Below are positions 1 through 19,766 of a stretch of DNA of 56,097 bases, piece by piece. The stretch comes from an uncultured Syntrophales bacterium (lineage in GTDB: Bacteria > Desulfobacterota > Syntrophia > Syntrophales > JADFWA01). The DNA is taken from NCBI GenBank assembly GCA_964650385.1, contig CAZYTP010000006.1, positions 1 through 56,097 of the forward strand, in the 5' to 3' direction. The position numbers and the translations under genes are program-made. How positions within the stretch are numbered: the first letter of the stretch is position 1; every line of letters starts with the position of its first letter. A model generated the notes under the pieces. That model was not told the origin of the DNA, did no database searches, and worked only from the letters and a program-made list of their open reading frames with translations.

Positions 1-2
1 CT

Positions 3-1264: not shown

Positions 1265-1325
1265 AAGTTGATAAGCATTATGAACACACTTATTGGACAT
1301 AACTTAGGATAGGAGGAAATGTCCT

Positions 1326-2135: not shown

Positions 2136-2152
2136 TTGGGGGGTGAAAGAAG

Positions 2153-3820: not shown

Positions 3821-3847
3821 GGCTGTTCAGGGGAGGAAATTTGAAAA

Positions 3848-4495
3848 ATGAATATTTCTGAAGACATGGTTAAAGAAATCATCATCGAGGTTTTGCAGCA
3901 AATGAAAGGAGAGGGAGAACCGGCAACGACCCAGGTAAAAGAGCAAGCCCGCGCGCTTCAGTTCCAGGAGATTGGGGAGGCAAAACCCGGAACTAATGTA
4001 AATGAGGTGGTTATTGGCATACCACCGGCATTTGGAACGGCCATGACCCAAACCATTATCAACATCCCGCATCGAGATGTATTAAGCGAAGTGATGGCAG
4101 GTATTGAAGAGGAAGGCCTCAAAGCCCGGATAGTAAAGGTCAATAGAACCGCAGATGTTGCATTTATTGCTCACGAGGCCGCCAAATTGAGCGGGTCAGG
4201 GATTGGTATTGGTATCATTTCAAGGGGAACCACCGTCATCCACCAGCGGGATTTGGCTCCGCTTCAAAACTTAGAGTTATTTTCACAATCACCGCTGGTA
4301 GAAAGGGAAACCTTTCGTGCCATTGGTCGTAACGCAGCCCAATATGCCAAGGGATTAAGCCCGTCACCGGTTCCTGTGCGCAACGATCCCATGGCCAGAC
4401 CTAAATATCAAGGTCTGGCGGCATTGCTCCACAACAAAGAAGTTCAATATGTGAAACCTGATATGCCGAGCATGGATATGACTGTTCGGCTTTAG
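3848..4495 (+). CDS. pduD: Diol dehydratase medium subunit with N-terminal encapsulation peptide
   Basis: [51 protein letters not shown]; N-terminal [16 protein letters not shown]. Confidence 0.95.
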
Positions 4496-4590
4496 TTGGA
4501 TCTATGATAGCTGCAAGAACACTATTTTAAGTCCTTATAATCTAAGAACAATAAAATATCAAAGAACCATTATCCAAGGAGGCAGAAAAC

Positions 4591-5121
4591 ATGGCTCAAT
4601 CAAAAGAATTGAATATTTCTCCCGACTTGATTGCTGAGGCGGTAAAACGGGCTATGGACAAACTTGGCCAAGAGCGTGAAAAGGGAGCTATAAAAAATGA
4701 TCCGACAGGTACACTTGACGCTAAGAAGGACTACCCACTCGCCGCCAGACGTCCCGACCTGGTTAAATCGGAAACTGGATTATCCCTTGATGAGATTACG
4801 TTGGATAAAGTTATAGATGGCAAAATCAGCTTTAATGACATCAAGGTTCGGCCGCAGACGCTGGAGTATCAAGCACAGATTGCTGAAAATATCCATCGGC
4901 CGCATATTGCAGCAAATCTGCGCCGGGCTGCGGAAATGACGCGAATTCCCGATGAACGCATTTTGGAAATGTATGATGCGTTACGCCCATACCGGTGCAC
5001 AAAGCAGGAACTACTCGATATAGCTAATGAACTTGAATCGAAATTTCAAGCGAAGATCTGTGCAGATTTGGTTCGTGAAGCTGCCGAAGTCTATGAAAAA
5101 CGCGGTCGTTTAAAACGTTAA
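4591..5121 (+). CDS. pduE: Diol dehydratase small subunit
   Basis: DYPLA, TLEYQAQIAE, NLRRAAEMTRIPDERILEMYDALRPYR, VREAAEVYEKR. Confidence 0.95.
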   Translation: MAQSKELNISPDLIAEAVKRAMDKLGQEREKGAIKNDPTGTLDAKKDYPLAARRPDLVKSETGLSLDEITLDKVIDGKISFNDIKVRPQTLEYQAQIAENIHRPHIAANLRRAAEMTRIPDERILEMYDALRPYRCTKQELLDIANELESKFQAKICADLVREAAEVYEKRGRLKR

Positions 5122-5134
5122 GGGTTACGTATAT

Positions 5135-6958
5135 ATGAGATACATTGCCGGTGTCGATGTTGGCAATAATACTACGGAGGTTGCCATAGCTAAGGTCTCA
5201 TTAGAGGGTGATATAGATTTCCTTGCCAGTGCTATGGTGAAAACCACGGGTATAAAGGGGACACTCAGGAATGTGCAGGGGATTATTGATGCCCTGGATA
5301 TCGCCATAGAACCGCTGGAAATACAACGCAAAGATATTAGTCTGGTTCTTCTCAATAAAGCAACTCCGGTTATCGGCGATGTTGCCATGGAAACAATTAC
5401 AGAAACTGTCATAACGGAATCAGCTATGATCGGTCATAACCCATCCACGCCTGCAGGAATGGGATTAGGGCTCGGGACCACCATCTCATTGGAAGATTTA
5501 AAGTCTGTTTCTCCTGATGAACGGTGGATTGTGGTTATTGACGGTTCCATTGAATTCCGGGAAGCAGCCGCACGTTTGAATGAAGCAACTTCTATGAATT
5601 TACAGATTGAAGGTGCAATAGTCAGGAAGGATGAGGCGGTATTGATCTATAACCGGTTACACCACCCTATCCCAATTGTTGATGAAGTATTACACATTGA
5701 ACGCGTTCCCATGGGAATGCCGGCAGCGATAGAGGTGGCAACAATAGGAAAAACTATTGAAAAACTATCCAATCCCTATGATATCGCCACTCTATTCAAT
5801 TTGGGACCGGAGGAAACAAAAAACATTGTTCCCATTGCCCGGGCGCTCACGGGAACCAGAAGTGCCGTAGTTATCAAGACACCACAAGGAGACATTCAAG
5901 AACGAAGGATCCCGGCGGGGAAAATCACACTCATTGGCCGACAAAAGGCAGAGGTGCCCGTTGAGGAAGGGGCCGAGGCCATAATGGACGAAATTGCCAA
6001 AGTGCACCCTTTAATAGAAATTCAGGCTGAACCCGGAACCAATGTCGGGGGAATGTTCGAAACGGTTCGTACGGTAATGGCCGATCTCACGGACCAACCG
6101 GTGACCGCGATCCGGGTGCAGGACATTCTCGCAGTGGACACTCTAGTTCCACAGAGAGTACTGGGTAGCCTTGCAGGAGAGTATTCTATGGGTAACGCAG
6201 TGGGGTTGGCTGCCATGGTAGAAACTCACAAACTGCCAATGCAGCGGCTGGCCCAGAAACTGGAAAATGAAATTATGGTTCACACTATTGTTGCCGGTGT
6301 TGAGGCCGAGATGGCCATCCGTGGTGCCATGACTACTCCAGGCACACAGCCCCCTCTTGCTATACTGGATCTGGGAGGCGGTTCCACCGACGCCTCAATC
6401 ATTAATGAAAATGGAGAAATTCAAAGTGTACATCTTGCCGGGGCCGGGGACATGGTAAGACTTCTTATTGATAAGGAACTAGGGCTTGAAAACTTGGAGC
6501 TCGCCGAAGATATCAAATTTTATCCTCTAGCCAAAGTTGAAACGCTTTACCATATGCGAAATGAAGACGGCTCGGTCCGGTTTTTCCACGAGCACCTTGA
6601 TCCGAGCCTGTTTGGGCGGGTGGTAGTGGTTACTGAAAACGGTCCAATGCCGGTGGAAACCCGCGAATCTGTGGCAAGAATTGCTGAAATTCGACAAAGG
6701 TCAAAGAAAAAAGTTTTCGTGCAAAACGCCCTTCGTGCGTTAGAAAGAGTTGCACCGGCTAACAATATCCGACTTATCAGCTTTGTAGTTCTGGTGGGAG
6801 GTTCAGCACTGGATTTTGAAATCCCCCGGATGATTTCTGATGCACTGGATGAGTATGGGGTGGTCACTGGCAGAGCCAATATCCGTGGCGTTGAAGGACC
6901 GAGAAACGCCGTTGCCACGGGTCTTGTTCTTGCTCATGTGGGAGAAGAAAAAGGATAA
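5135..6958 (+). CDS. pduG: Diol dehydratase reactivase, alpha subunit
   Basis: AGVDVGNNTTEV, TTGIKGT, ETITETVITESAMIGHNPSTP, LDLGGGSTDAS, EGPRNAVATGL. Confidence 0.95.
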   Translation: MRYIAGVDVGNNTTEVAIAKVSLEGDIDFLASAMVKTTGIKGTLRNVQGIIDALDIAIEPLEIQRKDISLVLLNKATPVIGDVAMETITETVITESAMIGHNPSTPAGMGLGLGTTISLEDLKSVSPDERWIVVIDGSIEFREAAARLNEATSMNLQIEGAIVRKDEAVLIYNRLHHPIPIVDEVLHIERVPMGMPAAIEVATIGKTIEKLSNPYDIATLFNLGPEETKNIVPIARALTGTRSAVVIKTPQGDIQERRIPAGKITLIGRQKAEVPVEEGAEAIMDEIAKVHPLIEIQAEPGTNVGGMFETVRTVMADLTDQPVTAIRVQDILAVDTLVPQRVLGSLAGEYSMGNAVGLAAMVETHKLPMQRLAQKLENEIMVHTIVAGVEAEMAIRGAMTTPGTQPPLAILDLGGGSTDASIINENGEIQSVHLAGAGDMVRLLIDKELGLENLELAEDIKFYPLAKVETLYHMRNEDGSVRFFHEHLDPSLFGRVVVVTENGPMPVETRESVARIAEIRQRSKKKVFVQNALRALERVAPANNIRLISFVVLVGGSALDFEIPRMISDALDEYGVVTGRANIRGVEGPRNAVATGLVLAHVGEEKG

Positions 6959-6962
6959 TCCG

Positions 6963-7478
6963 ATGGTGGATGAAAAATTTCATATAGATAGTGTGGAACC
7001 GACTGTACAAATCTTCGCAACCAAGCCTGTCCCCGAAAAGGAAATTGGACATATTCTTTGGGGATTAGAAGAGGAAGGAATCCCTGCCAAAGTTCAAGAA
7101 GTACGAAACGATTCGGCAGTAATCATTGCCAAACAGGCTGCTGATAGCTCACATCTCAATGTAGGAATCGGCGTTGATGGAAGTGGGCGCGAGGTTATTT
7201 TACATCATAGAGACCTGCCGAGTGAGAAACCTTTGTTTTCACTCTCGGCTGAGGAATTTCAATCAACACAGTTGCGTCGTCTGGGGGCCAATGCAGCTCG
7301 TTTAGTTAAGGGAGATCCACTTATTTTTCAGGATAACACTGTATATCATGTTGATCTTGAACGAGCGGCTCAACTTCAGCAGGATCAACCAGGAAATTTA
7401 ATCCAGCTACCCCCGGATCAATTAGAGAAATTGATTTCCATGGTGGTGACGGAAACTCTAAATAACATAAGATTATAG
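6963..7478 (+). CDS. pduH: Diol dehydratase reactivase, beta subunit, with C-terminal extension
   Basis: ILWGLEEEGIP, AADSSHLNVGIG, RLGANAARLVKG. ATG at 6963 follows an AAGGA RBS; the ORF-track start at 6840 overlaps pduG. Confidence 0.88.
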   Translation: MVDEKFHIDSVEPTVQIFATKPVPEKEIGHILWGLEEEGIPAKVQEVRNDSAVIIAKQAADSSHLNVGIGVDGSGREVILHHRDLPSEKPLFSLSAEEFQSTQLRRLGANAARLVKGDPLIFQDNTVYHVDLERAAQLQQDQPGNLIQLPPDQLEKLISMVVTETLNNIRL

Positions 7479-7487
7479 GGGAAGCCT

Positions 7488-7946
7488 ATGAAAAAACTAA
7501 GCTTGGGATTGATAGAAACATGGGGATATACGCCTGCCATAGAGGCTGCAGATGCCGGCACAAAAGCAGCTAATGTTAATTTTCTTGGCTATGAAATTAC
7601 GAGAGTAGCCCTGGTTACAGTAAAATTTGTCGGTGACGTGGCTGCAGTTCAAGCAGCGGTTTCTGCTGGTGAGCAGGCGGCAAAGAAGGTTGGAAAAGTG
7701 GTGTCCGTCCATGTAATTCCCAGACCGGATCCTCAACTCCGTATCGAACCATTGGATCAACCACCTTCTGATGAAAACAAATTATATATTCCTCCTAAGA
7801 AAGAAGAAGTTGAAGCACAACCGGAGCCACGACTTCCCAAGAAAAAAGAAATTAAAGCAAAACCGGAGTTACCACCGCCTCTTAAAGGTAAAGAGAAGAA
7901 GAGCAAGAGAGCAAAACCAATAAAGAAGAGTAAGAAAACAAAGTAG
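7488..7946 (+). CDS. BMC-H shell protein with Pro/Lys-rich C-terminal tail (PduK-like)
   Basis: SLGLIETWG...AIEAADAGTKAANV...GDVAAVQAAV...VHVIPRP followed by a ~65-aa low-complexity basic tail. Confidence 0.85.
   Translation: MKKLSLGLIETWGYTPAIEAADAGTKAANVNFLGYEITRVALVTVKFVGDVAAVQAAVSAGEQAAKKVGKVVSVHVIPRPDPQLRIEPLDQPPSDENKLYIPPKKEEVEAQPEPRLPKKKEIKAKPELPPPLKGKEKKSKRAKPIKKSKKTK
7791..7874 (+). repeat. Degenerate 42-bp tandem duplication in the shell-protein tail
   Basis: cctcctaagaaagaagaagttgaagcacaaccggag at 7791 vs cttcccaagaaaaaagaaattaaagcaaaaccggag at 7833 (PPKKEEVEAQPE / LPKKKEIKAKPE). Confidence 0.75.
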
Positions 7947-8040
7947 AAAAGCAATTAGTAATTAGAATAAAGCTTGAGGTAATTTATATCTCAATGAACA
8001 GGAGTGTAGAGATAGGCTTAACCTTGTAAAGGAGTGTGAA

Positions 8041-8658
8041 ATGGCAGAGCTTCGTGCATATGTATATTTGGATCGTATTCAACCCCAATTTACCGCATAT
8101 ATGAGCGCTAACGCCAGAGGCTATATTCCTATTCCGGGCATGGCCGCAATACTTGTAGAAATATCTCCAGGAGTGCTTATCAATAGAGTAATCGATGCGT
8201 CCGTGAAAGCAGCCAACATTAGACCGGGACTCATGGTGGTTGAAAGGCACTTTGGTGTGTTGGAATTTCATTCTGAAGCACAGGCTGATGTTAAACATGC
8301 CGGCGCTGCAGTACTCAAGGTTTTGGGGATGATAATTGAAGATCGTATCAAGCCAAAGATTTTGAGTTCTCAGATCATACACAAGGTTAATGCATATCAT
8401 GCACAAATGGTAAATGTCTCCCGGCTGGCCTCCATGTTACTTCCGGATCAAGATCTTTACATTTTGGAAGTTCAGCCTGCTGCCTATATTTCACTGGCAG
8501 CCAATGAAGCGGAGAAAAATTCGCCGATTACCCTTGTAGATTGTAGGACTTATGGTGCGGTGGGTCGATTGTCCCTTGGGGGTAAACAGGGGGATATTGA
8601 ACGAGCCGCAAGTGCGGCGGAAGTGGCAATTAAAAAGATCACCGGTAAAGAATCGTAA
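8041..8658 (+). CDS. BMC-T(dp) double-stacking gated trimer, CcmP/CsoS1D-like
   Basis: ELRAYVYLDRIQPQ, VEISPG, VERHFGVLEFHS, EVQPAAY, ANEAEK and GAVGRL match the CcmP-type permuted tandem BMC pattern. Confidence 0.85.
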   Translation: MAELRAYVYLDRIQPQFTAYMSANARGYIPIPGMAAILVEISPGVLINRVIDASVKAANIRPGLMVVERHFGVLEFHSEAQADVKHAGAAVLKVLGMIIEDRIKPKILSSQIIHKVNAYHAQMVNVSRLASMLLPDQDLYILEVQPAAYISLAANEAEKNSPITLVDCRTYGAVGRLSLGGKQGDIERAASAAEVAIKKITGKES

Positions 8659-8663
8659 TTTAA

Positions 8664-9530
8664 ATGAAGATAAGCGAATCGGCAAATCAACATATAGCAG
8701 CTTTTGAAGCCGCCTTGAAATTAAATGGCAATGGTTATTCCGATCAACCTCTGTTTGCTGGAGTGGATCTCGGGACTGCCTATATAGTAACGGCGGTTGT
8801 GGACAGTGAGGGAATACCTGTGGCCGGGGTACTTACTCGCAGTCAATCCAGCATCCGGGACGGGTTGGTCTTGGATTATGTCGGCGCCATTACACTCCTG
8901 CGCAAACAGGTGGAACTGCTTCACGGTGCCGGGTTCCCGATTAAAGTTGCGTCGGCTGCTTTTCCGCCCGGGACGATCGGACGAAACAACCATGCATTTG
9001 CAAATGTTTTGCAGAGTGTTGGATTGGAGGTATCCGGATTAATTGATGAACCCTCTGCGGCTTCTCTGGTCTTAGAGATCGCTGAAGGGGCTGTGGTGGA
9101 CATTGGTGGAGGAACCACAGGCATTTCTGTCATAAAAAATGGCCAGGTTGTTTACACCGCTGATGAACCCACTGGTGGTATCCATCTGGATCTTGTCCTT
9201 GCGGGTCATTATCGGATTGATACGCAAGAAGCGGAAAGCATTAAAACAGATTCCACCCGCCAACCTGAGATTTTTCCTCTGGTGCGACCTGTTTTCCAGA
9301 AAATGGCAAGTATTGTGCGACGGCACCTGCAAGAACATCCTGTTAAAACCCTCTATCTGGTTGGGGGAACAAGTTCTTTCCCCGGTATCGAGGACGTGAT
9401 GGAAAACGAAACCGGATTGGATGTTGTCAAACCTTATAACCCGTTACTCGTAACTCCCCTGGGTATTGCCTTAAGCTGTGTGAAAGAAAACTTAAGAAAA
9501 CAACCTGCCATGGGTCAAGAAAGATTATGA
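8664..9530 (+). CDS. eutJ: EutJ-family actin/Hsp70-fold ATPase
   Basis: GVDLGTAYIV, RDGLVLDY, PPGT, DEPSAA, VDIGGGTTG, ADEPTGG, LVGGT, VTPLGIA. Confidence 0.92.
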   Translation: MKISESANQHIAAFEAALKLNGNGYSDQPLFAGVDLGTAYIVTAVVDSEGIPVAGVLTRSQSSIRDGLVLDYVGAITLLRKQVELLHGAGFPIKVASAAFPPGTIGRNNHAFANVLQSVGLEVSGLIDEPSAASLVLEIAEGAVVDIGGGTTGISVIKNGQVVYTADEPTGGIHLDLVLAGHYRIDTQEAESIKTDSTRQPEIFPLVRPVFQKMASIVRRHLQEHPVKTLYLVGGTSSFPGIEDVMENETGLDVVKPYNPLLVTPLGIALSCVKENLRKQPAMGQERL

Positions 9531-10345
9531 AGGAAGAACAGATTCAGCATATCATTACAGAGGTCATTCGCAGGTTAGCAGTTCGCCTGGGCGCTGACGG
9601 TAGCCGTGGTACTTTAATCGCGGTATTTACCGGAGCAACCGTTGCTTTTATAGAAGCTATCCAACAGGTTCGTTCCCTTATCCTGGATGGCTACCAGGTA
9701 CAATTGGTTTTTTCGCAGGCAGCCGAAAATCTTTATGGCCAGGTTGCGAGAGACCAGCTGGATGGATTCCCTTATATCACTATGGTGGAGACAAAAAGGT
9801 GGCTCACCGCACTAAGGGAGTCCAAGGCCGTTGTTGTCCCCCTTTTGAGTATGAATACGGTTTCAAAGGTGTCTATGCTCATTGCAGATAATTTACCAAC
9901 CAATCTTATCCTGCATAGTCTCTTTATGGGAAAAGCGGTCTTTGCCGCACGAAATGGTGCAGATCCCGATGGAGATCACTGGCAAAAAAAAAATGGTGCT
10001 CACACGCAAAGCCCGGCGATTCGGGAGGCTCTTTTGAAAAGATTGCAAGTGGTTGATAATTATGGTTGCCATCTGACCGACATCCGGGAGCTAAGAAGAG
10101 CAGTGAATGCTTTCCTGACAGATACGAATACAAAGGATTCAACCGTAGAACTGTCCGACAATGCCATTCGGGTAGCCCACTCAACGCTTAACCATTCGGG
10201 AAAAATACTGACGGCAGCTGATGTTCGTCACGCCCATCGCCTGGGGGCGGATCTGACCCTGTTTTCTTCAACTTTAATTACGCCATTGGCACGTGATCTG
10301 GCTATGCAATATGATGTGGTTCTTTTAAAAAAGAACGGAAAATGA
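9527..10345 (+). CDS. BMC-associated flavoprotein (HFCD/CoaC-like fold) with N-terminal encapsulation peptide
   Basis: VFTGA, LVFSQAA, PLLSMNTVSKVSMLIADNL, C-terminal LITPLARD; N-terminal EEQIQHIITEVIRRL; eutJ-flavoprotein-eutN synteny. Confidence 0.75.
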   Translation: MKEEQIQHIITEVIRRLAVRLGADGSRGTLIAVFTGATVAFIEAIQQVRSLILDGYQVQLVFSQAAENLYGQVARDQLDGFPYITMVETKRWLTALRESKAVVVPLLSMNTVSKVSMLIADNLPTNLILHSLFMGKAVFAARNGADPDGDHWQKKNGAHTQSPAIREALLKRLQVVDNYGCHLTDIRELRRAVNAFLTDTNTKDSTVELSDNAIRVAHSTLNHSGKILTAADVRHAHRLGADLTLFSSTLITPLARDLAMQYDVVLLKKNGK

Positions 10346-10370
10346 GGTCCAATAAAGAGGAGAATTTGTT

Positions 10371-10649
10371 ATGTTAGTTGCGCAAGTCATAGGGACTGTG
10401 GTTGCCACTCGCAAACATGAACATCTGGTAGGCAGTAAGATCCAGGTGGTTCAACCCCTTGAATGCCGTGGTAGAAAACCAAAAGGTGATCCTTTTGTGG
10501 CCGTGGATGCCGTTGGAGCAGGTGCAGGCGAACATGTTCTCGTGGTCAGGGGAAGTGGCGCCCGGCTGGCAGTCGATAATGATCAATGCCCGATAGATGC
10601 CACCATTATCGGCATCATCGATCAAATCGATATTGAAGAGGGAATCTAA
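10371..10649 (+). CDS. pduN: BMC-P pentameric vertex protein (PduN/EutN/CcmL)
   Basis: VIGTVVATRK, VAVDAVGAGAGEHVLVVRGSGAR, PIDATIIGIID. Confidence 0.93.
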   Translation: MLVAQVIGTVVATRKHEHLVGSKIQVVQPLECRGRKPKGDPFVAVDAVGAGAGEHVLVVRGSGARLAVDNDQCPIDATIIGIIDQIDIEEGI

Positions 10650-10695
10650 CTTTTTGGGCAAACGATTCGCTTAAGATCACAGGGCCGAGATCAAA

Positions 10696-11286
10696 ATGGA
10701 AAGTCCGTCTAAAAAAATTTATACCGGCATAGGCGATAAAGGTGAAACTCGTCTTTTGAGTGGAGAAATGGTCGGAAAGGATGATTCCCGTGTCAGAACC
10801 TATGGGGGTCTGGATGAGTTCCAGTCTCACCTCGGATTGGCCCGAAGCCTGATACGGGAGGAATCAGTGCGAAACGTACTCGTCACCATTCAAGAAGACA
10901 TTTTTGTGGCAAGCTCTGAGTTAGCCTCAACGCCCGATGCTCTGAATCGATTGAAGCGGCGCCTGGGCAATGAAGATATCAGCAGGTTGGAGAGGCGGAT
11001 TGATGAGTTTACTGCATTGTATGGCATACCCCGTCATTTCGTTATGCCGGGGAAATCTCCAGATAGTGCGGCCCTGCATGTTGCACGAGCGGTCTGCAGG
11101 CGCTGTGAGCGGTTGATTGTTATGTTAAATAAAACAACGGGTGGGCATGATGAATTAGCGGTTTATTTCAACCGGCTCAGTGACCTATTGTTTGTACTGG
11201 CATGGGCTCTGGAGATCAATTCTGTTGTAAAAGATGTTGTGAGCGATTTGATTGAGGGTGAAGCGAGAAAAGGAAATCACCCATGA
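10696..11286 (+). CDS. pduO: PduO-type ATP:cob(I)alamin adenosyltransferase (N-terminal domain only)
   Basis: KIYTGIGDKGET, YGGLDE, LHVARAVCRRCER, YFNRLSDLLFVLA. Confidence 0.9.
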   Translation: MESPSKKIYTGIGDKGETRLLSGEMVGKDDSRVRTYGGLDEFQSHLGLARSLIREESVRNVLVTIQEDIFVASSELASTPDALNRLKRRLGNEDISRLERRIDEFTALYGIPRHFVMPGKSPDSAALHVARAVCRRCERLIVMLNKTTGGHDELAVYFNRLSDLLFVLAWALEINSVVKDVVSDLIEGEARKGNHP

Positions 11287-11867
11287 AAATCACTTATCCA
11301 GTGGCGCGTATTTTGGGTACCATCGCTGAAAGTAAGGCATCAGATTTGGCTGTACCTATGGCTATCGCTTTAATGGACGGGGAAGGCGGACTATTATTCT
11401 TTGGTCGTATGGATGGCACCTTACCGGCCAGTACGGAGATTGCCATTTCCAAGGCATATACAGCTGCGGTATTACGCATGGCCACTCATGAGTTGGGAAA
11501 ACTCGCCCAACCTGGAGGCGAACTTTACGGGATTCAACACACCCATGACGGCAAGATCGTGCTGTTTGGAGGAGGTCTTCCTTTGCAGTTGAATGGACAA
11601 GTCGTGGGTGCCATTGGCATCAGTGGGGGTAGTGTAAATGAAGATGTTCAGGTAGCTGAGTACGTCGTCAATGCCTTGGAGGAAATGGAATACTGGGCAA
11701 AACGTATCAAGGTGTTTTTGCCATCACAGCCATTGGATAATATCCGGATTTCCCAACTGGAAAACAGATTAAAGGAGGTATTTGAACAAATGAATTGTGC
11801 TCTTCCTGCCGGTGCCCCCTCCTTTCTGGCCGGTGCGATACTCATGGCTTCAAGTGAGGAATATTGA
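11283..11867 (+). CDS. GlcG/HbpS-like heme-binding protein (PduO C-terminal domain-like) with C-terminal extension
   Basis: RMDGT, IAISKAYTA, QPGGELYGI, FGGGLPL, GAIGISGGSVNEDVQVA; ATGA overlap with pduO. Confidence 0.85.
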   Translation: MKITYPVARILGTIAESKASDLAVPMAIALMDGEGGLLFFGRMDGTLPASTEIAISKAYTAAVLRMATHELGKLAQPGGELYGIQHTHDGKIVLFGGGLPLQLNGQVVGAIGISGGSVNEDVQVAEYVVNALEEMEYWAKRIKVFLPSQPLDNIRISQLENRLKEVFEQMNCALPAGAPSFLAGAILMASSEEY

Positions 11868-12013
11868 CCCTGTTACATAATTCAGGCTAAGAACAAGAAA
11901 GCAATTTTATGCCGTGGGAGAGCTTTGAAAAAAGTTTATAATACATTGTTTTTTGATCAATCAAAGATGTCTTCGGCCTAGATAAGCAAAGTCGATAGGA
12001 AGGAGGAATATAT

Positions 12014-13450
12014 ATGGGAGTCAAACAACAAATAATCGAGGATGTGGTCAGAGTTGTGCTTGAGGATTTATCAAGGGGGGAAAAGCTCCATATTGCAGAT
12101 CCTGTATTATCCAATGATACAGTTGATAGACCTAAGGATTTTAAAGGAATCTATGAAACTGTGGACGAGGCGGTGGAAAACGCCGTGGAAGCGCAAAAAA
12201 AACTGATAGCAATGTCTCTTGAGCGCCGATGTGAAATCATTGAGTCTATTCGAAAGACCATCCTGGATAACAATGAAATGCTTTCCGCATTGGCTATACG
12301 GGAAACAAAGATCGGTCGTTATGAAGATAAGATCCGGGAAAATATTCTCTGTGCCACGAGGACTCCGGGTGTCGAAGACATCCAACCCATCGCAAAAACA
12401 GGCGATCATGGCCTAATGTTGCTTGAGTACGCACCTGTAGGTGTTATCGGTGCACTTACTCCCATTTCAAATCCGACTGGAACGTTTATCCACAACGGCA
12501 TCAGTATGATAGCGGCAGGTAATGCAGTGGTATTCAATCCACATCCCAGTGCCCGGGAAACCAGTACAAAGACGATAGAAATCATACATCAGGCTATTGT
12601 CGATGCCGGAGGACCGCCAAGTCTTATTTCGGCAGTCCGTGAGCCAACCTTAGATACAGCGAGACAGGTTATCGATCATCCGAAGATTGACATGCTGGTG
12701 GCAACAGGTGGCCGTCCCGTAGTGAAAGTAGTCCTTTCTTCCGGCAAAAAGGCTATTGGAGCCGGGGCCGGAAATCCACCGGTACTGGTTGATGAAACGG
12801 CACACATCAGGAAGGCTGCCGAATGCATAATCAATGGAGCAAGTATAAATAATAATATCTTTTGTACCTGTGAAAAAGAAGTTATCGTCGTAGATGAAGT
12901 AGCCAACTCATTAATCAAGTTTATGCAGGAAACTAAAAAAGCCTACCTGCTCAATCGTGAAGAAGCTGAAAATGTCACCAATCTAGTTGTTTCTCCGGAA
13001 GGAAAGATCAATGGCTCATATATTGGTAAAAACGTGCAGGAGATTTTGCAGGCGGTCGGCATCGATGTAGGTGAAGAATATAGACTGGCCATTTTTGAGG
13101 CACCGAAAGACCATCCGCTTGTTTGGTTAGAACAAATGATGCCAATCATGCCTATTGTCCGTGTCAAGGACTTTCGGGAAGGAATGAATTTTGCGGTCGA
13201 GGTCGAGCAGGGCAACAGGCATACTGCTTTAATGCATTCTACTAACGTCGATAATATGACCGCATTCGCCCGGGCGGTGCAAACCACTATATTTGTCAAG
13301 AATGGTCCTTCCTATTCGGGCATTGGCCTCGGTGGTGAAGGCCATACATCCTTTACCATTGCTGGCCCAACAGGAGAAGGGTTAACATCAGCCAAGTCAT
13401 TCACCCGGCAGCGGCGCTGCACGCTGGTAGAATCTTTCCGGATTATATAG
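12014..13450 (+). CDS. pduP: CoA-acylating aldehyde dehydrogenase (PduP/EutE)
   Basis: TPGVED, PVGVIGALTPISNP, ATGG, GAGAGNPP, catalytic Cys in NNIFCTCEKE, EQMMP, GPTGEG; N-terminal encapsulation helix. Confidence 0.93.
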   Translation: MGVKQQIIEDVVRVVLEDLSRGEKLHIADPVLSNDTVDRPKDFKGIYETVDEAVENAVEAQKKLIAMSLERRCEIIESIRKTILDNNEMLSALAIRETKIGRYEDKIRENILCATRTPGVEDIQPIAKTGDHGLMLLEYAPVGVIGALTPISNPTGTFIHNGISMIAAGNAVVFNPHPSARETSTKTIEIIHQAIVDAGGPPSLISAVREPTLDTARQVIDHPKIDMLVATGGRPVVKVVLSSGKKAIGAGAGNPPVLVDETAHIRKAAECIINGASINNNIFCTCEKEVIVVDEVANSLIKFMQETKKAYLLNREEAENVTNLVVSPEGKINGSYIGKNVQEILQAVGIDVGEEYRLAIFEAPKDHPLVWLEQMMPIMPIVRVKDFREGMNFAVEVEQGNRHTALMHSTNVDNMTAFARAVQTTIFVKNGPSYSGIGLGGEGHTSFTIAGPTGEGLTSAKSFTRQRRCTLVESFRII

Positions 13451-13578
13451 ATGTTGGCAATTTTCTAAATTTTATAACAGCTAAAAAGTAAGGCTAAGGA
13501 AATAAGGAACTTTCTATAAAAAGAATTTAATGTAACCTAAATCAAGTAGTTGCAGAATGTAAAAAAAGGAGAGCAAAA

Positions 13579-13986
13579 ATGAGTAGTCATCTTGATTTAG
13601 CATTAGAGATAATTGCAGCTGCCCGGGAAAAAGCTGAGGAAATCAATGTTCCCATGGTCATTGCCGTAGTGGATGCCGGCGGAAACCTGGTGGCCCAGCA
13701 GCGTATGGATGGTGCCCTGTTGGTCAGTATCGATATCTCACTTAACAAGGCTTACACGGCGGTAGCTGTTCAAATACCTACCCATGAATTGGCAATTGTT
13801 TCTCAACCCGGCCAGCCTCTTTTTGGCATACACAATGCGGATGGGGGCCGTATAACAATTTTTGGAGGCGGGTTTCCTTTGGAACACAATGGTGAAATCG
13901 TTGGAGCCATTGGTGTCAGTGGTGGAAGCGTCGAAGAAGATATTCAGTGTGCAAAATCCGGTCTTGAACGATTTAAAGATTTGTAA
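13579..13986 (+). CDS. Second GlcG/HbpS-like heme-binding protein (OrfY-like)
   Basis: PMVIAVVDAGGNL, RMDGALLVSIDISLNKAYTA, FGGGFPL, GAIGVSGGSVEEDI. Confidence 0.88.
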   Translation: MSSHLDLALEIIAAAREKAEEINVPMVIAVVDAGGNLVAQQRMDGALLVSIDISLNKAYTAVAVQIPTHELAIVSQPGQPLFGIHNADGGRITIFGGGFPLEHNGEIVGAIGVSGGSVEEDIQCAKSGLERFKDL

Positions 13987-13998
13987 TAGGACTGATCC

Positions 13999-14295
13999 AT
14001 GAAAATCGAACTGATAAAAGCTCCGACTGAAGCCTTTTTGGAGATGGTACTGATTAACGTTCGCTTTCCGGATAGGGAACGGTTGGAGAACATTCACTGG
14101 GGAGCAGTCGGTCTTGTTCAGGCAAAGCTTATCAACTTGTACTGGGCTGCTGATTTAGCCGAAAAGGCAAGCAAGGTCAAGACTGCACTTGTTTTTGGCA
14201 GCTGTCCCCAGCATATCCAGATGCTTGCCATTTTTGGAAAGCAAGCAGAGGTAGAGGCTGCCCTGGATAAGATTCAAGCAGCTTATCGTAAATGA
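13999..14295 (+). CDS. GrpU-like BMC-H shell protein with Fe-S ligand motif
   Basis: IKAPT, GAVGLVQ, AADLAEKA, GSCPQH (GXCPQ motif), AIFG..AEVEAAL. Confidence 0.8.
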   Translation: MKIELIKAPTEAFLEMVLINVRFPDRERLENIHWGAVGLVQAKLINLYWAADLAEKASKVKTALVFGSCPQHIQMLAIFGKQAEVEAALDKIQAAYRK

Positions 14296-14333
14296 TACGA
14301 ATTCGCGATACATGGCTATAGGATAAACGCTTC

Positions 14334-15650
14334 ATGAATCTGGCCGAAAAAATATACGATGCCGGTGTGGTTGGGGCTGGCGGAGCCGGGTTTCCGACCC
14401 ATATTAAGGCGAAATCGCAAGTTGAATACTTTTTAGCCAATGGCGCCGAATGCGAGCCCCTAGTGCATAAAGACTATGAACTGATGGTCGGACATGCGGC
14501 AGAGATTGTTCGCGGCGTGGAATTGTTGATGGCAGCGACTAAAGCTAAACACGGTTATTTTTGCATCAAATCCAAAAATGAAGGAGCGATTGAAGCCATT
14601 GAAAAATGTATTGTCGGGGACAATCAGAAAATATTCGGGTTAGGTGATTTTTACCCGTCCGGCGATGAATTCGAGGTGGTGCATTCGGTAACAGGGAGGT
14701 TGCTTCCGGCTGGCGGCATTCCGATCGATATCGGCTGCTTAGTGTCAAATGTGGAGACCTGCTATAATATTGCCCGGGCCGAAAATGATAAACCGGTCAC
14801 TGAAAAGTTTGTCAGTATCAACGGAGCAGTCAATAACCCCTGCGCTTTTTTTGCGCCGATCGGGATTACTTTAGACGGGCTTATCGAACATGCCGGCGGA
14901 ACGACCGTCGACGATTATTCCATCATCATCAGCGGTCTGATGATGGGCGCGCTAGCTTTGGATGGCAACGATGTGGTCACAAAGACTACTGCCGGGGTGA
15001 TCATTCTACCAAAAAATCATTATCTCATTGGTATGAAGGAAAAATCCGAGCATCAACGGCTTAAGATCGGCAGATCGGCCTGTGATCAGTGCCGTTATTG
15101 CACTGAGCTTTGTCCTCGATATTTGTTGGGCTACGATGTCCAGCCGCACCAGGTCATGCGTTCACTCGGCTTTACCAAAACCGGGGCCAGCGTCTGGAAT
15201 CAATCGGCGGCGTTATGCAGCGGCTGCGGGTTGTGCACTCTTTATGCCTGCCCGGAGAATTTATTCCCAAAAGAGGTTTGCGACCGGGCCAAAATCGATA
15301 TGCAAAAAGAAAAGATTCGTTATGTCCAGACCAAACCGGTCAAAAAACATCCGCTTAAAGAGGCACGACGCGTCCCGCTGCAGCAACTGATCAAACGGTT
15401 ACATTTAAAACAATTTGATGTCCCGACACCCTATATCTCCGAAAAACCGCATCCTCGACTGGTCAAGGTTTTATTAAAGCAGCATATTGGCGAACCGGCC
15501 AGGCCTATTGTGGAAGAGGGTCTGCCTGTTAGCGCGGGACAGGTGATCGGCAAGCCGGCAGCGGGTAAGTTAGGGGCAAAAATCCATGCCTCAATTTCGG
15601 GTGTGGTATCTAAAATTACTGCCGATTATATCCAAATCGAAAAAAGGTAG
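14334..15650 (+). CDS. pduS: PduS cobalamin reductase (RnfC-like FMN/[4Fe-4S] protein)
   Basis: GVVGAGGAGFPTHIK, NGAECEP, YPSGDE, CDQCRYCTELCP, CSGCGLCTLYACP, QHIG, IHASISG. Confidence 0.92.
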   Translation: MNLAEKIYDAGVVGAGGAGFPTHIKAKSQVEYFLANGAECEPLVHKDYELMVGHAAEIVRGVELLMAATKAKHGYFCIKSKNEGAIEAIEKCIVGDNQKIFGLGDFYPSGDEFEVVHSVTGRLLPAGGIPIDIGCLVSNVETCYNIARAENDKPVTEKFVSINGAVNNPCAFFAPIGITLDGLIEHAGGTTVDDYSIIISGLMMGALALDGNDVVTKTTAGVIILPKNHYLIGMKEKSEHQRLKIGRSACDQCRYCTELCPRYLLGYDVQPHQVMRSLGFTKTGASVWNQSAALCSGCGLCTLYACPENLFPKEVCDRAKIDMQKEKIRYVQTKPVKKHPLKEARRVPLQQLIKRLHLKQFDVPTPYISEKPHPRLVKVLLKQHIGEPARPIVEEGLPVSAGQVIGKPAAGKLGAKIHASISGVVSKITADYIQIEKR

Positions 15651-15664
15651 GGGCGGGAGACAAG

Positions 15665-16219
15665 ATGGAAAAAAGGGTAGCTATCGGTTTGTTAGAATTG
15701 AGCAGCGTTGCCTCCGGGATACAGGCGACGGATATTATGCTCAAAGCCGCCGGGGTCGAGTTGATGTTGGCAAGAACGATCTGTTCCGGTAAATACATGG
15801 TCTTAGTCACCGGGGAGGTTGGTGCTGTCAAGTCATCGGTTCAGGCTGCGGAAAGCGAAATCAATCACTCGCTGATTGATTCTTTTATCATCCCCAACGT
15901 TCATCCGTTAGTTTTCAAGGCTATGGCGGGTCATAGTCAGGTGGAGACAATGGATGCGCTGGGTATCGTCGAATCATTTTCAGTGGCTTCGTTAATCGAG
16001 GGGGCTGATGCGGCCGTCAAAATGGCCAACGTTCAGCTTATGGAAATCAGGCTGGCCATGGCTTTAGGCGGCAAGGCATTCTTCACCGTCACCGGTGATG
16101 TGGCAGCAGTGCGCAGCGCTGTGGATGCTGCTGTTCGAATAATCTCTAACAAAGGATTGCTGGTCAACGATGTCGTCATCCCCAAACCCAGACCGGAGTT
16201 GATGTCGGAGATGGTTTAG
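15665..16219 (+). CDS. pduT: BMC-T shell protein PduT with pore Cys
   Basis: AIGLLELSSVASG, MLKAA, RTICSGKY (Fe-S Cys), IPNVHP, ALGIVE, IRLAMALGGK. Confidence 0.92.
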   Translation: MEKRVAIGLLELSSVASGIQATDIMLKAAGVELMLARTICSGKYMVLVTGEVGAVKSSVQAAESEINHSLIDSFIIPNVHPLVFKAMAGHSQVETMDALGIVESFSVASLIEGADAAVKMANVQLMEIRLAMALGGKAFFTVTGDVAAVRSAVDAAVRIISNKGLLVNDVVIPKPRPELMSEMV

Positions 16220-16268: not shown

Positions 16269-16321
16269 AAAAAACCTGGTTCGCCCTCAAAACCCAGCAT
16301 TTTTCAGTTTTTCAAAGGTCT
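16269..16321 (-). mobile_element. Partial MITE (family A, left end)
   Basis: Reverse complement agacctttgaaaaactgaaaaatgctgggttttgagggcgaaccagg matches the ends at 21895 and 42329. Confidence 0.75.
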
Positions 16322-18627
16322 TTCCTTATTGTTATCGTTCCTTCAGGGGTATCCATAAGAATGATGCCCAACTCTTCCAATTCTTTTCTTATCCGGTCGG
16401 ATTCTTTCCAGTTCCCGGCCATCCTAAACTCTTCCCTTTTTTTCAAAAGCCTTTTGACATCATCACTTACTGTTTCTTCATCAAATTCCATGATTCCCAA
16501 TACTGAATCTATTCCTTGCATTACCTGAAGGATTTTATCCTGCCCTTTTTTGTCCAGTTGACCTCTGGCCAGTGGGAGATTGACCTTCTTGACAAATTCA
16601 AAAATGGAGGCAAGGGCACCGGAGATATTAAAATCATCATCCATCGCCTCGGTAAATCCCTGCTTCACATCATAGATAAACTGATCAACATCCTGATAGC
16701 CTTCTCCGGGTGTAAAGCAAATGAGTCTCTGGATAAAATTATTTAGGTTCTTAACAGTATTTCTTGCCGTATCAAGTGCTCCAAAGAAAAAATTGAGCGG
16801 CTTTCTGTAATGGGAACTGAGCAGAAAATATCTGACATCTTCTCCCTTATATCCTTTTTTCTTTATGTCTTCCATGGCAAAAAAATTATTGAGAGAGCGG
16901 GACATCTTTTTCCCTTCCATCATTACAAGATCGGTGTTGACCCAGTAATTTGCCGGACGTTTTCCTGTGGCTGCTTTCCCTATAGCCATAACATTTTCAC
17001 AGTGGGGAAAGACAATATCGGAACCACTTGCGTGAATATCAAAGGTTTCTGCCATATGCTCCCGGGAAATTGCCGCGCACATAAGATGCCAGCTCGGCCT
17101 GACATTTCCCCACCGGGTTTTGAAATATACTCCCTTTTTTAACTCGGCAAGCGTCGATCTCTTGAGGAGGGCAAAATCTATGGGGCTGTCTTTCTCATAG
17201 TAGTCAATATCTACTGTTTTTCCATGCCTGACCTTTTCCAGGTCAATGTTGGACAGGCTACCGTAATCATCAAGTTTCGATATGTCGAAATAAACAGATT
17301 TCAGCTTCTCGTAGGCATATCCCCTTTCCACCAGTTTCTCAGCAAGATCAAGCATAATATTAACATTTTTACTTGCCCTCGGATAATCGTTCTTACTTTT
17401 AATATTAAGCCAGGCTATATCCTTGAGAAACATTGCGGCATATGACTCTGTAAATTCCCCCAGATCCATATTGAGCCGTTCAGCCCCCTTTATGGACCTG
17501 TCGGCTAAATCAATAATGTTCGTGACATGTTTGACCTTATAACCTTTGAATTCCAGGTACCTTCTGATGACATCTGAAACAACAAAGCGACGGTAACTTC
17601 CGATATGCGGCACTTCGTGAACAGTCGGACCGCAGGAATACATAAGGATTTCTTCGGAATTTATCGGCTGGAAAAATTCCTTCTCCCTGGTTAGCGTATT
17701 GTACAGACGGAGTGATGTTTTTTCTTTATCCGTAAAAAGTTCCGTAGAGAGATACCTCTCTCCACTATCGGGAAAAATCACCACGATAATTCCATCTTTC
17801 ATTTCCTTTGCCTTCTCCAGGGCCACATGCATCGCGGCTCCCGAACTCATTCCGGCGAGAATTCCCTCTTCCCGGGTAAGTCTTCTGGCCATCTCAAAGG
17901 CATCCTCGTCGAGAATGTTTACTTTTTCATGCAGGCGGTTTTTATCAAAAATCCCCGGCTGATAGGACTCTTTCATATTCTTAAGTCCCTGTATTTTATG
18001 CCGTAAATAAGGTTCTACCCCTATTATTTTTATATCCTTGTTATATTCCCTGAGTCTTCGTGCAATTCCCATGACGGTACCGGAGGTTCCTATTGCGGCA
18101 ACCACCATGGTTACTTGTCCTTCCGTCTGCCTCCATATTTCTTCTGCAGTACCGAAATAATGAGCCAGCACATTATCTTCGTTATTAAACTGATCCGTGC
18201 AAAAATATTTTTCCGGATTCTCACGCATCAATTTATAGGACTCCTCTATAGCGCCATCTGTACCAAGATTCGCTGGAGTGAGATGTAATTCTGCACCCAT
18301 CGCCTTTAATATTTTTTTTCTCTCCTCGCTGGCAGATTCCGGCATCGTCAGAAATAGCCCATATCCCTTGGTTGCAGCTACAAGGGCAAGACCGATGCCG
18401 GTATTTCCACTGGTAGCCTCCAAAATTACCTTGTTTTTGGTCAGCTCTCCTCTCTCTTCAGCCTTCTCAATCATGTAAAGGGCAGTTCTGTCCTTTATCG
18501 ATCCCCCCGGATTAGAGCTTTCCATTTTTGCAAAAATTTTTACATTTTTGTTGGGATTCAATTTTCGGATTTCCACAAGAGGAGTATCCCCTATCATATC
18601 CAAGATATTTCTATAGTTATCTCGCAT
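16312..18627 (-). CDS. cysS: Fusion of PLP-dependent cysteine synthase (CysM/CysK-like, ~aa 1-300) and cysteinyl-tRNA synthetase (~aa 305-771)
   Basis: N-terminal IGDTPLV, NPGGSIKDR, EATSGNTG, GTSGT, FPDSGERYLS. C-terminal LYNTLTR, CGPTV, HIGS, RPSWHLMC, FPHCEN, KMSRS, HYRKP, DDDFN. Confidence 0.9.
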   Translation of the reverse strand: MRDNYRNILDMIGDTPLVEIRKLNPNKNVKIFAKMESSNPGGSIKDRTALYMIEKAEERGELTKNKVILEATSGNTGIGLALVAATKGYGLFLTMPESASEERKKILKAMGAELHLTPANLGTDGAIEESYKLMRENPEKYFCTDQFNNEDNVLAHYFGTAEEIWRQTEGQVTMVVAAIGTSGTVMGIARRLREYNKDIKIIGVEPYLRHKIQGLKNMKESYQPGIFDKNRLHEKVNILDEDAFEMARRLTREEGILAGMSSGAAMHVALEKAKEMKDGIIVVIFPDSGERYLSTELFTDKEKTSLRLYNTLTREKEFFQPINSEEILMYSCGPTVHEVPHIGSYRRFVVSDVIRRYLEFKGYKVKHVTNIIDLADRSIKGAERLNMDLGEFTESYAAMFLKDIAWLNIKSKNDYPRASKNVNIMLDLAEKLVERGYAYEKLKSVYFDISKLDDYGSLSNIDLEKVRHGKTVDIDYYEKDSPIDFALLKRSTLAELKKGVYFKTRWGNVRPSWHLMCAAISREHMAETFDIHASGSDIVFPHCENVMAIGKAATGKRPANYWVNTDLVMMEGKKMSRSLNNFFAMEDIKKKGYKGEDVRYFLLSSHYRKPLNFFFGALDTARNTVKNLNNFIQRLICFTPGEGYQDVDQFIYDVKQGFTEAMDDDFNISGALASIFEFVKKVNLPLARGQLDKKGQDKILQVMQGIDSVLGIMEFDEETVSDDVKRLLKKREEFRMAGNWKESDRIRKELEELGIILMDTPEGTITIRKDL

Positions 18628-18641
18628 TAAGTTTCACCTAC

Positions 18642-18668
18642 AAAAAAAGGGCCAATCTTTCGACCCCT
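18642..18668 (-). terminator. Intrinsic terminator-like hairpin plus U7 immediately upstream of the cys fusion RBS
   Basis: Minus strand aggggtcga-aaga-ttggccc-ttttttt, ending 14 nt before the ATG. Confidence 0.55.
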
Positions 18669-18735
18669 GAATCTAAAAACTCTTAACTTTCTACTGTAAC
18701 GGGTTCTTAAAATGAGGGTCAGATTTAGAAAACTG

Positions 18736-18820
18736 ACCGGGAGCGCACCCGTAAGGGACGCAATATAAAACAAACATATGCCTTACCGGGAAGCCCTGCC
18801 CTGTGGGCAGGGAGCTTCAC
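18736..18820 (-). repeat. Palindromic dispersed repeat / MITE family B (short copy)
   Basis: Reverse complement gtgaagctccctgcccacagggcagggcttcccggtaaggcatatgtttgttttatattgcg...gggtgcgctcccggt matches 47390-47498. Confidence 0.8.
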
Positions 18821-18887
18821 ATTTCTTCAACTTATAAGTAAAGTTACTTTCATGTAAAATATCAAATATCAAGATCTGCCCCCTTTC

Positions 18888-19304
18888 TTAACTGTCGAAT
18901 TTAGGTATGGGAATCTTTATAAACTTGACTCCCTCTTCTTTCAGTGTTTCTTCTTCAGTTTTAGTCGTAGTCCCTTTTATATTTCTTGTATCCTCTTCGC
19001 CTCTATGTATTTTCAGGGCTACCTTGGCAAACTTATCCCCAACATCATCAAAGTTTTTGTCGAGATATTCATGAAATAGCTGAAGTGCTTTTATCGGAGA
19101 AATATCTTTTAAACTTTTTTCTTTAGATTCCCCAAGGTCCTTCCCCATTACAATTACAGACGAGAGAAGCATTTCCACTTCAGAACTTCCACATATGGGA
19201 CAGGTGATCAACTTCTGAGTCTTCTGATCTTCAAAAGCCGTCCTGTCATTAAACCACCCCTCGAACTTGTGGTCTTTTTCACATTTAAGGTCATAAATTA
19301 TCAC
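18888..19304 (-). CDS. DUF1178 family zinc-ribbon protein
   Basis: IIYDLKCEKDHKFEGWF, LITCPICGS, FDDVGDKFA, IKGTTT..E...LKEEGV. Confidence 0.85.
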   Translation of the reverse strand: MIIYDLKCEKDHKFEGWFNDRTAFEDQKTQKLITCPICGSSEVEMLLSSVIVMGKDLGESKEKSLKDISPIKALQLFHEYLDKNFDDVGDKFAKVALKIHRGEEDTRNIKGTTTKTEEETLKEEGVKFIKIPIPKFDS

Positions 19305-19689: not shown

Positions 19690-19766
19690 CGGGATGTGGC
19701 CCAGCCTGGTAGGGCACTGCGTTCGGGACGCAGGAGTCGCGAGTTCGAATCTCGCCATCCCGACCA
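19690..19766 (+). tRNA. tRNA-Pro(CGG)
   Basis: CGGGATG/CATCCCG acceptor stem, anticodon arm ctgcg-ttCGGga-cgcag, TTCGAAT T-loop, encoded ACCA end; 77 nt. Confidence 0.97.

Follow-up and report, generated by a model that had tools for sequence, protein, structure and literature searches.

A cysteine synthase joined to a cysteinyl-tRNA synthetase-like module in a Syntrophales bacterium and its relatives

Introduction

Why should a bacterium that has a canonical cysteinyl-tRNA synthetase (CysRS) carry a second, diverged copy attached to its cysteine synthase? The question is raised by one gene in a 56,097-nucleotide stretch of DNA, here called the window, from an uncultured Syntrophales bacterium of the phylum Desulfobacterota (assembly GCA_964650385.1, contig CAZYTP010000006.1). 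A single open frame on the minus strand (16312..18627; 771 amino acids plus stop) makes up the whole fusion gene, whose predicted product joins a CysM-type, pyridoxal phosphate (PLP)-dependent cysteine synthase to a full-length CysRS-like module. We favour a composite reading, to which we give about an even chance: the accessory module would dock tRNA-Cys, would probably still load or sense cysteine, and would in this way couple the synthesis of cysteine to its tRNA.

The fusion design is widespread but apparently unstudied. No description of a cysteine synthase-CysRS fusion was found in the literature searched, from whose coverage subscription journals were absent. The available portions of Mukai 2017 (PMC5424206) and of a 2022 review (PMC8762117) mention no CysK/M-CysRS fusion. 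In the accessible text of Aravind 2010, cysteine synthase appears only as a neighbour of MetRS paralogs (PMC2922099), and a review of aminoacyl-tRNA synthetase (aaRS) paralogs, in its available part, lists only CysRS* and MshC as paralogs of CysRS (PMC9437257).

Architecture of the fusion

The first-pass annotation of the window had described one 771-residue frame with an intact PLP domain joined to CysRS, and domain searches confirm it. The gene is made up of the following parts, with residue numbers referring to the fusion protein.

17767..18603, minus strand: CysM-type PLP cysteine synthase half, residues 9-287 (PALP, cysKM and motif matches)
17674..17730, minus strand: linker, approximately residues 300-318 (0 of 18 columns at least 90% conserved; the predicted local distance difference test score, pLDDT, of the model dips to 69-80)
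16765..17673, minus strand: CysRS-like catalytic domain (Rossmann plus connective peptide, CP), residues 319-621 (tRNA-synt_1e; alignment with 1li5 and 8qhp; Foldseek)
17512..17514, minus strand: codon of I372, equivalent to E. coli T68 (alignment and conservation counts)
17116..17160, minus strand: family-specific CP-domain segment, residues 490-504 (column conservation among fusions)
16990..17004, minus strand: H542-C543-E544-N545-V546, equivalent to E. coli H234-H235-E236-N237-E238 (alignment and conservation)
16894..16908, minus strand: KMSRS, residues 574-578, the class I KMSKS motif with its second Lys changed to Arg (alignment)
16489..16656, minus strand: DALR_2 helical domain, residues 658-713 (Pfam)
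16342..16467, minus strand: CysS_C anticodon-binding domain, residues 721-762 (Pfam; conserved residues)

In Pfam, PALP covers residues 9-287 (E 4.9e-71) and tRNA-synt_1e residues 319-621 (1.2e-84), with DALR_2 (658-713) and CysS_C (721-762; 4.9e-7) at the C-terminal end. Among the NCBIfam models, the protein passes cysS (TIGR00435, 398.8 bits for a cut-off of 340; 400.6 bits in the genome search) and cysKM (TIGR01136, 368.5 bits for a cut-off of 344.15), falls below the cut-offs of the CysM equivalog (TIGR01138, 358.9 vs 394.2 bits) and of the CysK equivalog (TIGR01139, 326.8 vs 350.95 bits), and fails the MshC model (TIGR03447, 174.5 bits for a cut-off of 485.1). The PLP half resembles CysM, or O-acetylserine sulfhydrylase B (Salmonella 2jc3; E. 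coli 2bhs and 2v03), in all its PLP motifs: SIKDR with the PLP lysine Lys45, TSGNTG (72-77), GTSGT (180-184) and MSSG (260-263) are intact. Its best solved relatives are the CysM structures 2jc3 and 2bhs (~255 bits; template-modelling (TM) score 0.95). The CysRS half resembles canonical bacterial CysRS (E. coli CysS 1li5, 1li7 and 1u0b; 8qhp) over a full-length class I fold that includes the anticodon domain. Its bit scores are 285 against 1li5 and 322 against 8qhp, and Foldseek places it on chain 1u0b_B of the E. coli CysRS-tRNA complex over 479 columns with a TM score of 0.86. None of the solved structures spans both halves, the best query-normalised TM score being 0.53. The AlphaFold model of the fusion, built from a 55-sequence alignment, has a pLDDT of 90.4 and a predicted TM score (pTM) of 0.75.

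A second copy beside the canonical cysS

Is the module the working CysRS of its cell? A second, canonical cysS was one of the genes that the first-pass annotation had singled out as telling, and it is present in the host genome (97% complete, 173 contigs) on another contig (C3:26198-27664, 564.8 bits), where it carries HIGH, NFTD, GWHIEC, FPHHENE and KMSKS. The same pairing prevails in a sample of 151 genomes from the order, which mostly have one match of ~560 bits in a frame of ~500 amino acids and one of ~400 bits in a frame of ~770. Among the 160 carriers of the fusion found across the phylum, 150 have at least two cysS matches at an E-value of 1e-60 or better, by hand cross-tabulation. Because a canonical cysS accompanies the fusion in nearly all carriers, the CysRS half is, by these sequence comparisons, a paralog and not the housekeeping enzyme.

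The remaining ten carriers include three assemblies that are only 62-79% complete. In genomes G192 and G229 the canonical cysS is the only match, the synthetase half of the fusion being too decayed to pass, and the fusion synthetase halves of G460 and G191, at 126 and 141 bits, are likewise too decayed. In G191 and G220, a frame break or contig ends interrupt the canonical cysS. In all, five of the ten carriers retain a canonical copy, which is whole in two of them and split or degraded in three. G304 and G501 (95-97% complete; 210 and 710 contigs) gave the fusion as sole cysS match, and so did G078 (87% complete), from the order sample. No solid case of the fusion as sole CysRS was found among the sampled genomes, the fragmented G078, G304 and G501 being the only candidates; other candidates, picked out by weak best scores, were rejected because a contig end or a frame break had cut their canonical genes.

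Several cysS genes in the sample are unusual in their own right. In G191, a 100%-complete genome, the canonical gene lies in two frames (G191:C2:129281-130649; model positions 1-251 and 277-464). The break is odd because the fusion of this genome has a dead synthetase half, which would leave the broken gene as the sole working cysS; a sequencing error or an insertion is the probable cause. Three cysS-family matches occur in G174, G214, G249, G281, G311, G340 and G369 (family f48) and in others; the third copy might be the CysRS* type of Desulfobacterales. A third copy (592.8 bits) also occurs in G058, from the window's own genus, on a short contig that may be contamination.

The remodelled amino-acid pocket

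What has changed in the second copy? Residue numbering was fixed by alignment to E. coli CysRS 1li5, in which C332 corresponds to C28, HIGS (341-344) to HIGH (37-40), I372 to T68, R377 to K73, W513 to W205, M516 to E208, C517 to C209, H542 to H234, C543 to H235, V546 to E238, and KMSRS (574-578) to KMSKS (266-270). The class I signatures are kept as the variants HIGS and KMSRS. The motif substitutions listed in the first-pass annotation are all present at residue level. In the anticodon-binding domain, where it had seen a pattern of arginines and aspartates retained, R731, R735, D744, R747, G754 and D759 are conserved as in canonical CysRS. One of its substitutions, WHIEC to WHLMC, is real here and is not general: methionine occurs in 6 of 120 close homologues, and the norm of the clade is WHLEC. 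T68 lies in the pocket region, and W205 is counted with C28, C209 and H234 in the thiol-binding zinc core. The protein ligands of the CysRS zinc are C28, C209, H234 and E238, according to the accessible part of one report (PMC7563103). Three of these four are kept in the fusion, as C332, C517 and H542, and the fourth, E238, has become Val546.

The close homologues number 120, all of them full length and 68-91% identical; those with names come from Syntrophales metagenome-assembled genomes (MAGs), from S. gentianae and from Syntrophus aciditrophicus, whose homologue (P0061) is 70% identical. This set also conserves the residues that replace the canonical ones (I or V at position 372 in 117, C543 in 119, V546 in 112, with T in 5 and I in 3, and R577 in 115), which argues that the substitutions did not arise by chance. 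H341, G343, C517 and H542 are kept in all 120, C332 and K574 in 119 each, and the PLP motifs (K45, TSGNTG, GTSGT and MSSG) in 120 of 120. The canonical comparison set consists of 96 standalone CysRS representatives from outside the fusion clade, after P0125, an N-terminally truncated fusion belonging to the clade itself, was dropped. Here position 68 is Thr in 95 of 96, position 235 is His in 94, position 238 is Glu in all 96, and position 269 is Lys in 92. Measured against both canonical CysRS and intact fusions, the order-level clade around the window's gene shares five replacements (T68 to I or V, M212 to I, H235 to C, E238 to V, I or L, and H256 to N), and it keeps C28, HxG, W205, C209, H234 and KMSRS. 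Conservation of the substitutions, which the first-pass annotation had proposed as a check, thus holds for the order but fails for the fusion family as a whole.

The rebuilt pocket might activate another sulfur or selenium amino acid made in cis, such as cysteine persulfide, S-sulfocysteine or selenocysteine, and the product would then be passed to tRNA-Cys or to another acceptor. A change of this kind would fit the replacement of five pocket-region residues, invariant in canonical enzymes, by residues that are fixed in the clade, while the ATP motifs and a Cys/Cys/His zinc core are kept under strong purifying selection. Cysteine synthases can also take persulfide and thiosulfate donors, as stated in the available part of PMC13188885. 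However, E238, H235 and T68 were also lost independently in several sister lineages that lack the ATP motifs, which makes relaxation likelier than design, and the substrate is not deducible from the sequence. As for persulfide, the accessible part of PMC7563103 reports four lysines for the PLP-dependent persulfide activity of CysRS, and two of the four are arginine here (K73 is R377 and K269 is R577). We regard a changed specificity as unlikely. A more particular version, for the Syntrophus-type lineage, seems to us more unlikely still: the CysM half would make a non-canonical sulfur or selenium amino acid, for instance cysteine persulfide out of sulfane sulfur, and the synthetase half, its zinc pocket deprived of the Glu, would activate the product and either load it onto tRNA-Cys or pass it to another acceptor.

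Distribution, origin and decay of the family

Is this protein an isolated case? By protein search, 160 of the 401 genomes sampled from the phylum, representing 99 of 255 genera, contain full-length fusions, at 45-70% identity and in frames of ~760-800 amino acids; an assembly artefact at the junction was rejected on these counts. Longer frames (929-1403 amino acids) occur at the fusion N-terminus in four loci (L056, at G316:C12, L047, L063 and L074), and may be stop-to-stop start-codon artefacts or real extra N-terminal domains.

The family alignment was built from 52 fusion loci (50 distinct fusions) across the phylum, together with representatives from an exhaustive profile search. A FastTree tree was made from 61 fusion CysRS halves and 100 standalone representatives and was rooted on canonical cysS, midpoint rooting having put the root within the long-branched fusion group. 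In this tree, 60 of the 61 fusions fall into one clade (support 0.992), which also holds 7 unfused or fragmentary entries, and on this topology the phylum's fusion family is of single origin. Another cysteine synthase-CysRS fusion, P0123 (768 amino acids, from a MAG with the source name Nanoarchaeota), has a fully canonical pocket. It lies outside the bacterial fusion clade and therefore appears to be an independent, archaeal fusion event, and it may be its organism's working CysRS.

The PLP half is intact throughout the family alignment, at 58-79% identity to the query. Identity is 28-67% for the synthetase half, whose decay is mosaic: 9 to 11 sequences have all the canonical synthetase motifs, 12 have lost KMSKS alone, 14 have lost both HIGH and KMSKS and keep the zinc Cys and His, and 12 are stripped of nearly everything, zinc ligands included, as in a Desulfovibrio ferrophilus protein with the source name "cysteine synthase". 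The six anticodon-domain residues given above are kept in 59-61 of the 61 fusions, in 11-12 of the 12 dead-site forms, and in 81-95 of the 96 canonical CysRS. Conservation of the synthetase half is densest in the CP domain, where segment 490-504 (R490, L493, L496, K497, G499 and T504) is at least 90% conserved in the 61 fusions, dead-site forms included; canonical CysRS is mostly gapped at this place.

With such decay in view, the module could be a pure pseudo-synthetase here too, a sensor to which cysteine, uncharged tRNA-Cys or both would bind and which would adjust the cysteine synthase allosterically. The mosaic loss of HIGH, KMSKS and zinc ligands in sister clades that retain the anticodon-domain residues speaks in its favour, as does the loss of one zinc ligand and four other canonical-invariant residues in the window's own lineage. 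A canonical cysS stands alongside, and the host genome search found no CysE, the usual feedback point of cysteine synthesis. There is also a precedent in HisZ, a non-adenylating HisRS paralog that mediates inhibition by histidine (PMC9437257, accessible part). Yet the order preserves its ATP signature motifs almost without exception, though sister clades shed them quickly once dispensable, and the ratio of nonsynonymous to synonymous substitution rates (dN/dS) in the Rossmann part is as low as in canonical cysS. That sensing is all the module does in this protein is a serious contender, if a doubtful one.

Selection on the two halves

Values of dN/dS were obtained by the Nei-Gojobori method within the genus and the family. 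They are 0.04-0.12 for the PLP half and 0.10-0.18 for the synthetase half, against 0.09-0.15 for the canonical cysS that these genomes also carry; purifying selection on the synthetase half is as strong as on housekeeping cysS. The CysRS half might still be taken for a redundant relic, a duplicate in decay that serves no function itself, given that a canonical cysS is always present and that catalytic motifs decay in many lineages. A relic would hardly be found as a full-length module in 160 of 401 genomes, at the dN/dS just given, with anticodon-domain residues and a CP segment conserved even in dead-site forms, and of the explanations weighed here we find this the least probable.

The host genome has one tRNA-Cys (GCA), with U73 and A37. 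In four lake-water RNA libraries, which may contain DNA, contigs lie over short pieces of both halves at a depth of 2-5, and none bridges the junction at 17656-17746; coverage of this kind is too thin to indicate transcription, let alone one transcript for both halves.

The source of cysteine and a possible donor

Where does the cell obtain its cysteine? The fusion is the only cysKM match over the cut-off in the host genome, and the next-best PALP match is an 81-bit, threonine-dehydratase-like open reading frame (ORF). Searches of the same genome, covering both cysE and sepRS, whose presence the first-pass annotation had held to be informative, found neither: the best matches were 32 bits for cysE (serine acetyltransferase) and 22.8 bits, far under the cut-off, for SepRS. 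SepCysS (best match 37.9 bits, far under the cut-off) and, for transsulfuration, any Cys_Met_Meta_PP enzyme (best match 37.7 bits) were also absent from the search results. From these searches, the PLP half appears to be the genome's sole recognisable means of making cysteine. A single cysKM match is found in all 5 genomes of the genus, and a single match of fusion-typical score in 58 of the 151 order genomes (hand count), the others adding a standalone CysK of ~450 bits.

The sulfhydrylation donor may be O-phosphoserine (Sep), a weak lead that we draw from the missing serine acetyltransferase together with a substrate loop like that of Mycobacterium tuberculosis CysM. The fusion loop is GLKNMKESYQPGIFD, unlike the GIRRWPTEYLPGIFN of E. 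coli and Salmonella CysM, from which the fusion further differs by its additional 466-residue C-terminal module. It resembles the ALRNMDEGFVPELYD of M. tuberculosis CysM, an O-phosphoserine sulfhydrylase (3dwg, 3dki), when the two are aligned via the intermediate P0226, and it is nearer to that loop than to the GIRRW of E. coli CysM. GLKN (214-217) is invariant in the 55 aligned fusions, and the basic K216 stands at the position of M. tuberculosis CysM R220, a residue that we take to bind phosphoserine. Unlike these local features, overall similarity is lower to M. tuberculosis CysM than to E. coli CysM, the former falling outside the 60 best solved matches, and no neighbours of the M. tuberculosis CysO or Mec type are conserved near the fusions.

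In the 401 phylum genomes, matches to the cysE family form two classes, a true CysE class of ~230-264 bits (86 of 401) and a second one of ~165-175 bits in frames of 320-340 amino acids. CysE over the cut-off occurs in 3 of 160 carriers vs 83 of 241 non-carriers, by a hand count in which related genomes are not independent.

These findings also bear on a tRNA-dependent synthesis, which the first-pass annotation had offered as an analog of the SepRS/SepCysS pathway: the CysRS half would charge Ser, O-acetylserine or Sep, and the PLP half would convert the product to Cys-tRNA. It would suit a cell in which cysE is not found, the fusion is the sole cysteine synthase and the tRNA-Cys anticodon domain is kept. 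What tells against it is the retention of the thiol-recognising zinc core and W205, the occurrence of the same fusion in relatives with no usable synthetase site, and the TSGNTG loop, presumably the one for the carboxylate of a free amino acid, which the PLP half keeps in all members. Moreover, SepRS and SepCysS are not found in the host genome, and about half of the carriers have a cysE-like gene. We consider such a route very improbable.

A model for the fusion protein

What, then, would the fusion do? In the composite reading that we favour, the N-terminal half would be a CysM-type PLP beta-replacement enzyme making the cell's cysteine, and the C-terminal half an accessory CysRS paralog that docks tRNA-Cys through its retained anticodon-binding domain. 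Docking would couple cysteine synthesis to tRNA-Cys, and we propose this as the common function of the whole family because the anticodon-domain residues persist while the catalytic motifs are lost. In the Syntrophales-type lineage, the module would still bind ATP and form an adenylate, with its zinc pocket rebuilt to Cys, Cys and His. It still looks capable of adenylation because selection acts on the HIGH-like and KMSKS-like motifs, and since sister clades have discarded the ATP motifs that this lineage keeps, the adenylate chemistry probably survives here. Cysteine from the neighbouring half would be captured and then loaded onto tRNA-Cys, or sensed together with tRNA-Cys, or both. In sister lineages that lack the ATP site, the docking or sensing role would remain alone, and the module would resemble HisZ or GCN2.

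The interpretation in the first-pass annotation is partly borne out by this model. Its channelling of newly made cysteine onto tRNA may hold: purifying selection has preserved the ATP motifs and the anticodon domain, along with three of the four zinc ligands. The regulatory role that it also mentioned gains most from the family-wide picture, in which one lineage after another loses catalytic motifs and the anticodon-domain residues do not vary; the route resembling SepRS/SepCysS is the part that finds no backing.

Several points weigh against the composite reading. Its tRNA binding, catalysis and regulation are inferred from sequence, and a pTM of 0.75 alone is no demonstration of an interface between the halves of the modelled protein. 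The repeated catalytic losses in sister clades show that the module is not kept for aminoacylation, and this could already hold here too. The replaced E238, T68, M212, H235 and H256 could abolish the activation of cysteine or change the substrate. No neighbour gene is conserved: after clustering of 369 ORFs from the 52 loci, the best neighbour cluster covers 7 of 52 loci, most of which belong to one order. Finally, a lower-scoring cysE-like gene is found in ~76 of 160 carriers (hand cross-tabulation), and the fusion design is therefore not tied to the loss of serine acetyltransferase; a link between fusion and cysE loss was rejected as a rule, being partial only and drawn from related genomes that are not independent.

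Comparison with known systems

With canonical CysRS, the module shares C28, C209, H234, W205 and the HIGH-like and KMSKS-like motifs. It differs in being fused, in being a second copy with its own clade and CP segment, and in the changes E238V, T68I, H235C, M212I, H256N and K269R.

The composite reading also has parallels among other synthetase-like proteins. In GCN2, a degenerate HisRS-like domain binds uncharged tRNA to control the attached enzyme. This parallel applies by analogy to the dead-site relatives; GCN2 itself belongs to eukaryotes, and its HisRS-like domain is joined to a kinase and binds many tRNAs. As in HisZ-HisG, a synthetase paralog is physically joined to a biosynthetic enzyme of the same amino acid, and many relatives are catalytically dead. 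Unlike HisZ, the fusion is covalent, keeps its anticodon domain and, in this protein and its order, keeps the ATP motifs. The SepRS-SepCysS pathway is comparable in that cysteine synthesis is tied to tRNA-Cys and a PLP enzyme is used. SepCysS has a different PLP fold, however. SepRS, as stated in the available part of PMC8762117, is related to PheRS and not to CysRS. MshC and the CysRS* of Desulfobacterales are likewise diverged, non-housekeeping copies of CysRS (PMC9437257), and neither is fused to a cysteine synthase. CysRS* is described as being without the anticodon-binding domain (PMC9437257), which the fusion keeps.

Genomic context

Upstream of the gene, a consensus scan alone points to one further element:

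18647..18668, minus strand: terminator-like hairpin with a T run (consensus scan only)

It ends ~20 nucleotides upstream of the fusion ATG, with no space left for a promoter, and could reflect read-through or attenuation from the DUF1178 gene (18888-19304); alternatively, the match may be due to chance. Near the gene, no Rfam family reaches its gathering score, and the 260-nucleotide leader (18628-18887) gave only chance-level matches.

On the plus strand, positions 1-16219 of the window hold a complete-looking locus for a B12-dependent diol dehydratase microcompartment of the Pdu type. It comprises bacterial microcompartment (BMC) shell genes, large, medium and small dehydratase subunits, a reactivase, a PduO-type adenosyltransferase, two HbpS-like proteins, an aldehyde dehydrogenase, an RnfC/PduS-like flavoprotein and a tandem-BMC protein. 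The locus converges on the fusion from the opposite strand and ends 92 nucleotides from the fusion stop. Elsewhere in the window are a tRNA-Pro (CGG) at 19690-19766 (plus strand), a tRNA-Ala (CGC) at 42195-42270 (plus strand), and a V-type ATPase subunit I gene that begins at 28799 (plus strand).

Implications

The plain source names "cysteine--tRNA ligase" and "cysteine synthase" hide a second function in these proteins, and the ligase name is probably wrong for the lineages with dead active sites. With synthetase sites that range naturally from intact to dead, the family should be useful for studying how aaRS paralogs are repurposed. If the enzyme does make and load a modified cysteine, it would be a natural example of such a design. 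If instead docking steers or drains the cysteine synthase, the fusion would be a direct bacterial coupling of amino-acid synthesis to the corresponding tRNA, a cysteine counterpart of HisZ and GCN2 within one polypeptide, and it would explain how toxic cysteine is kept under control in anaerobes that lack serine acetyltransferase.

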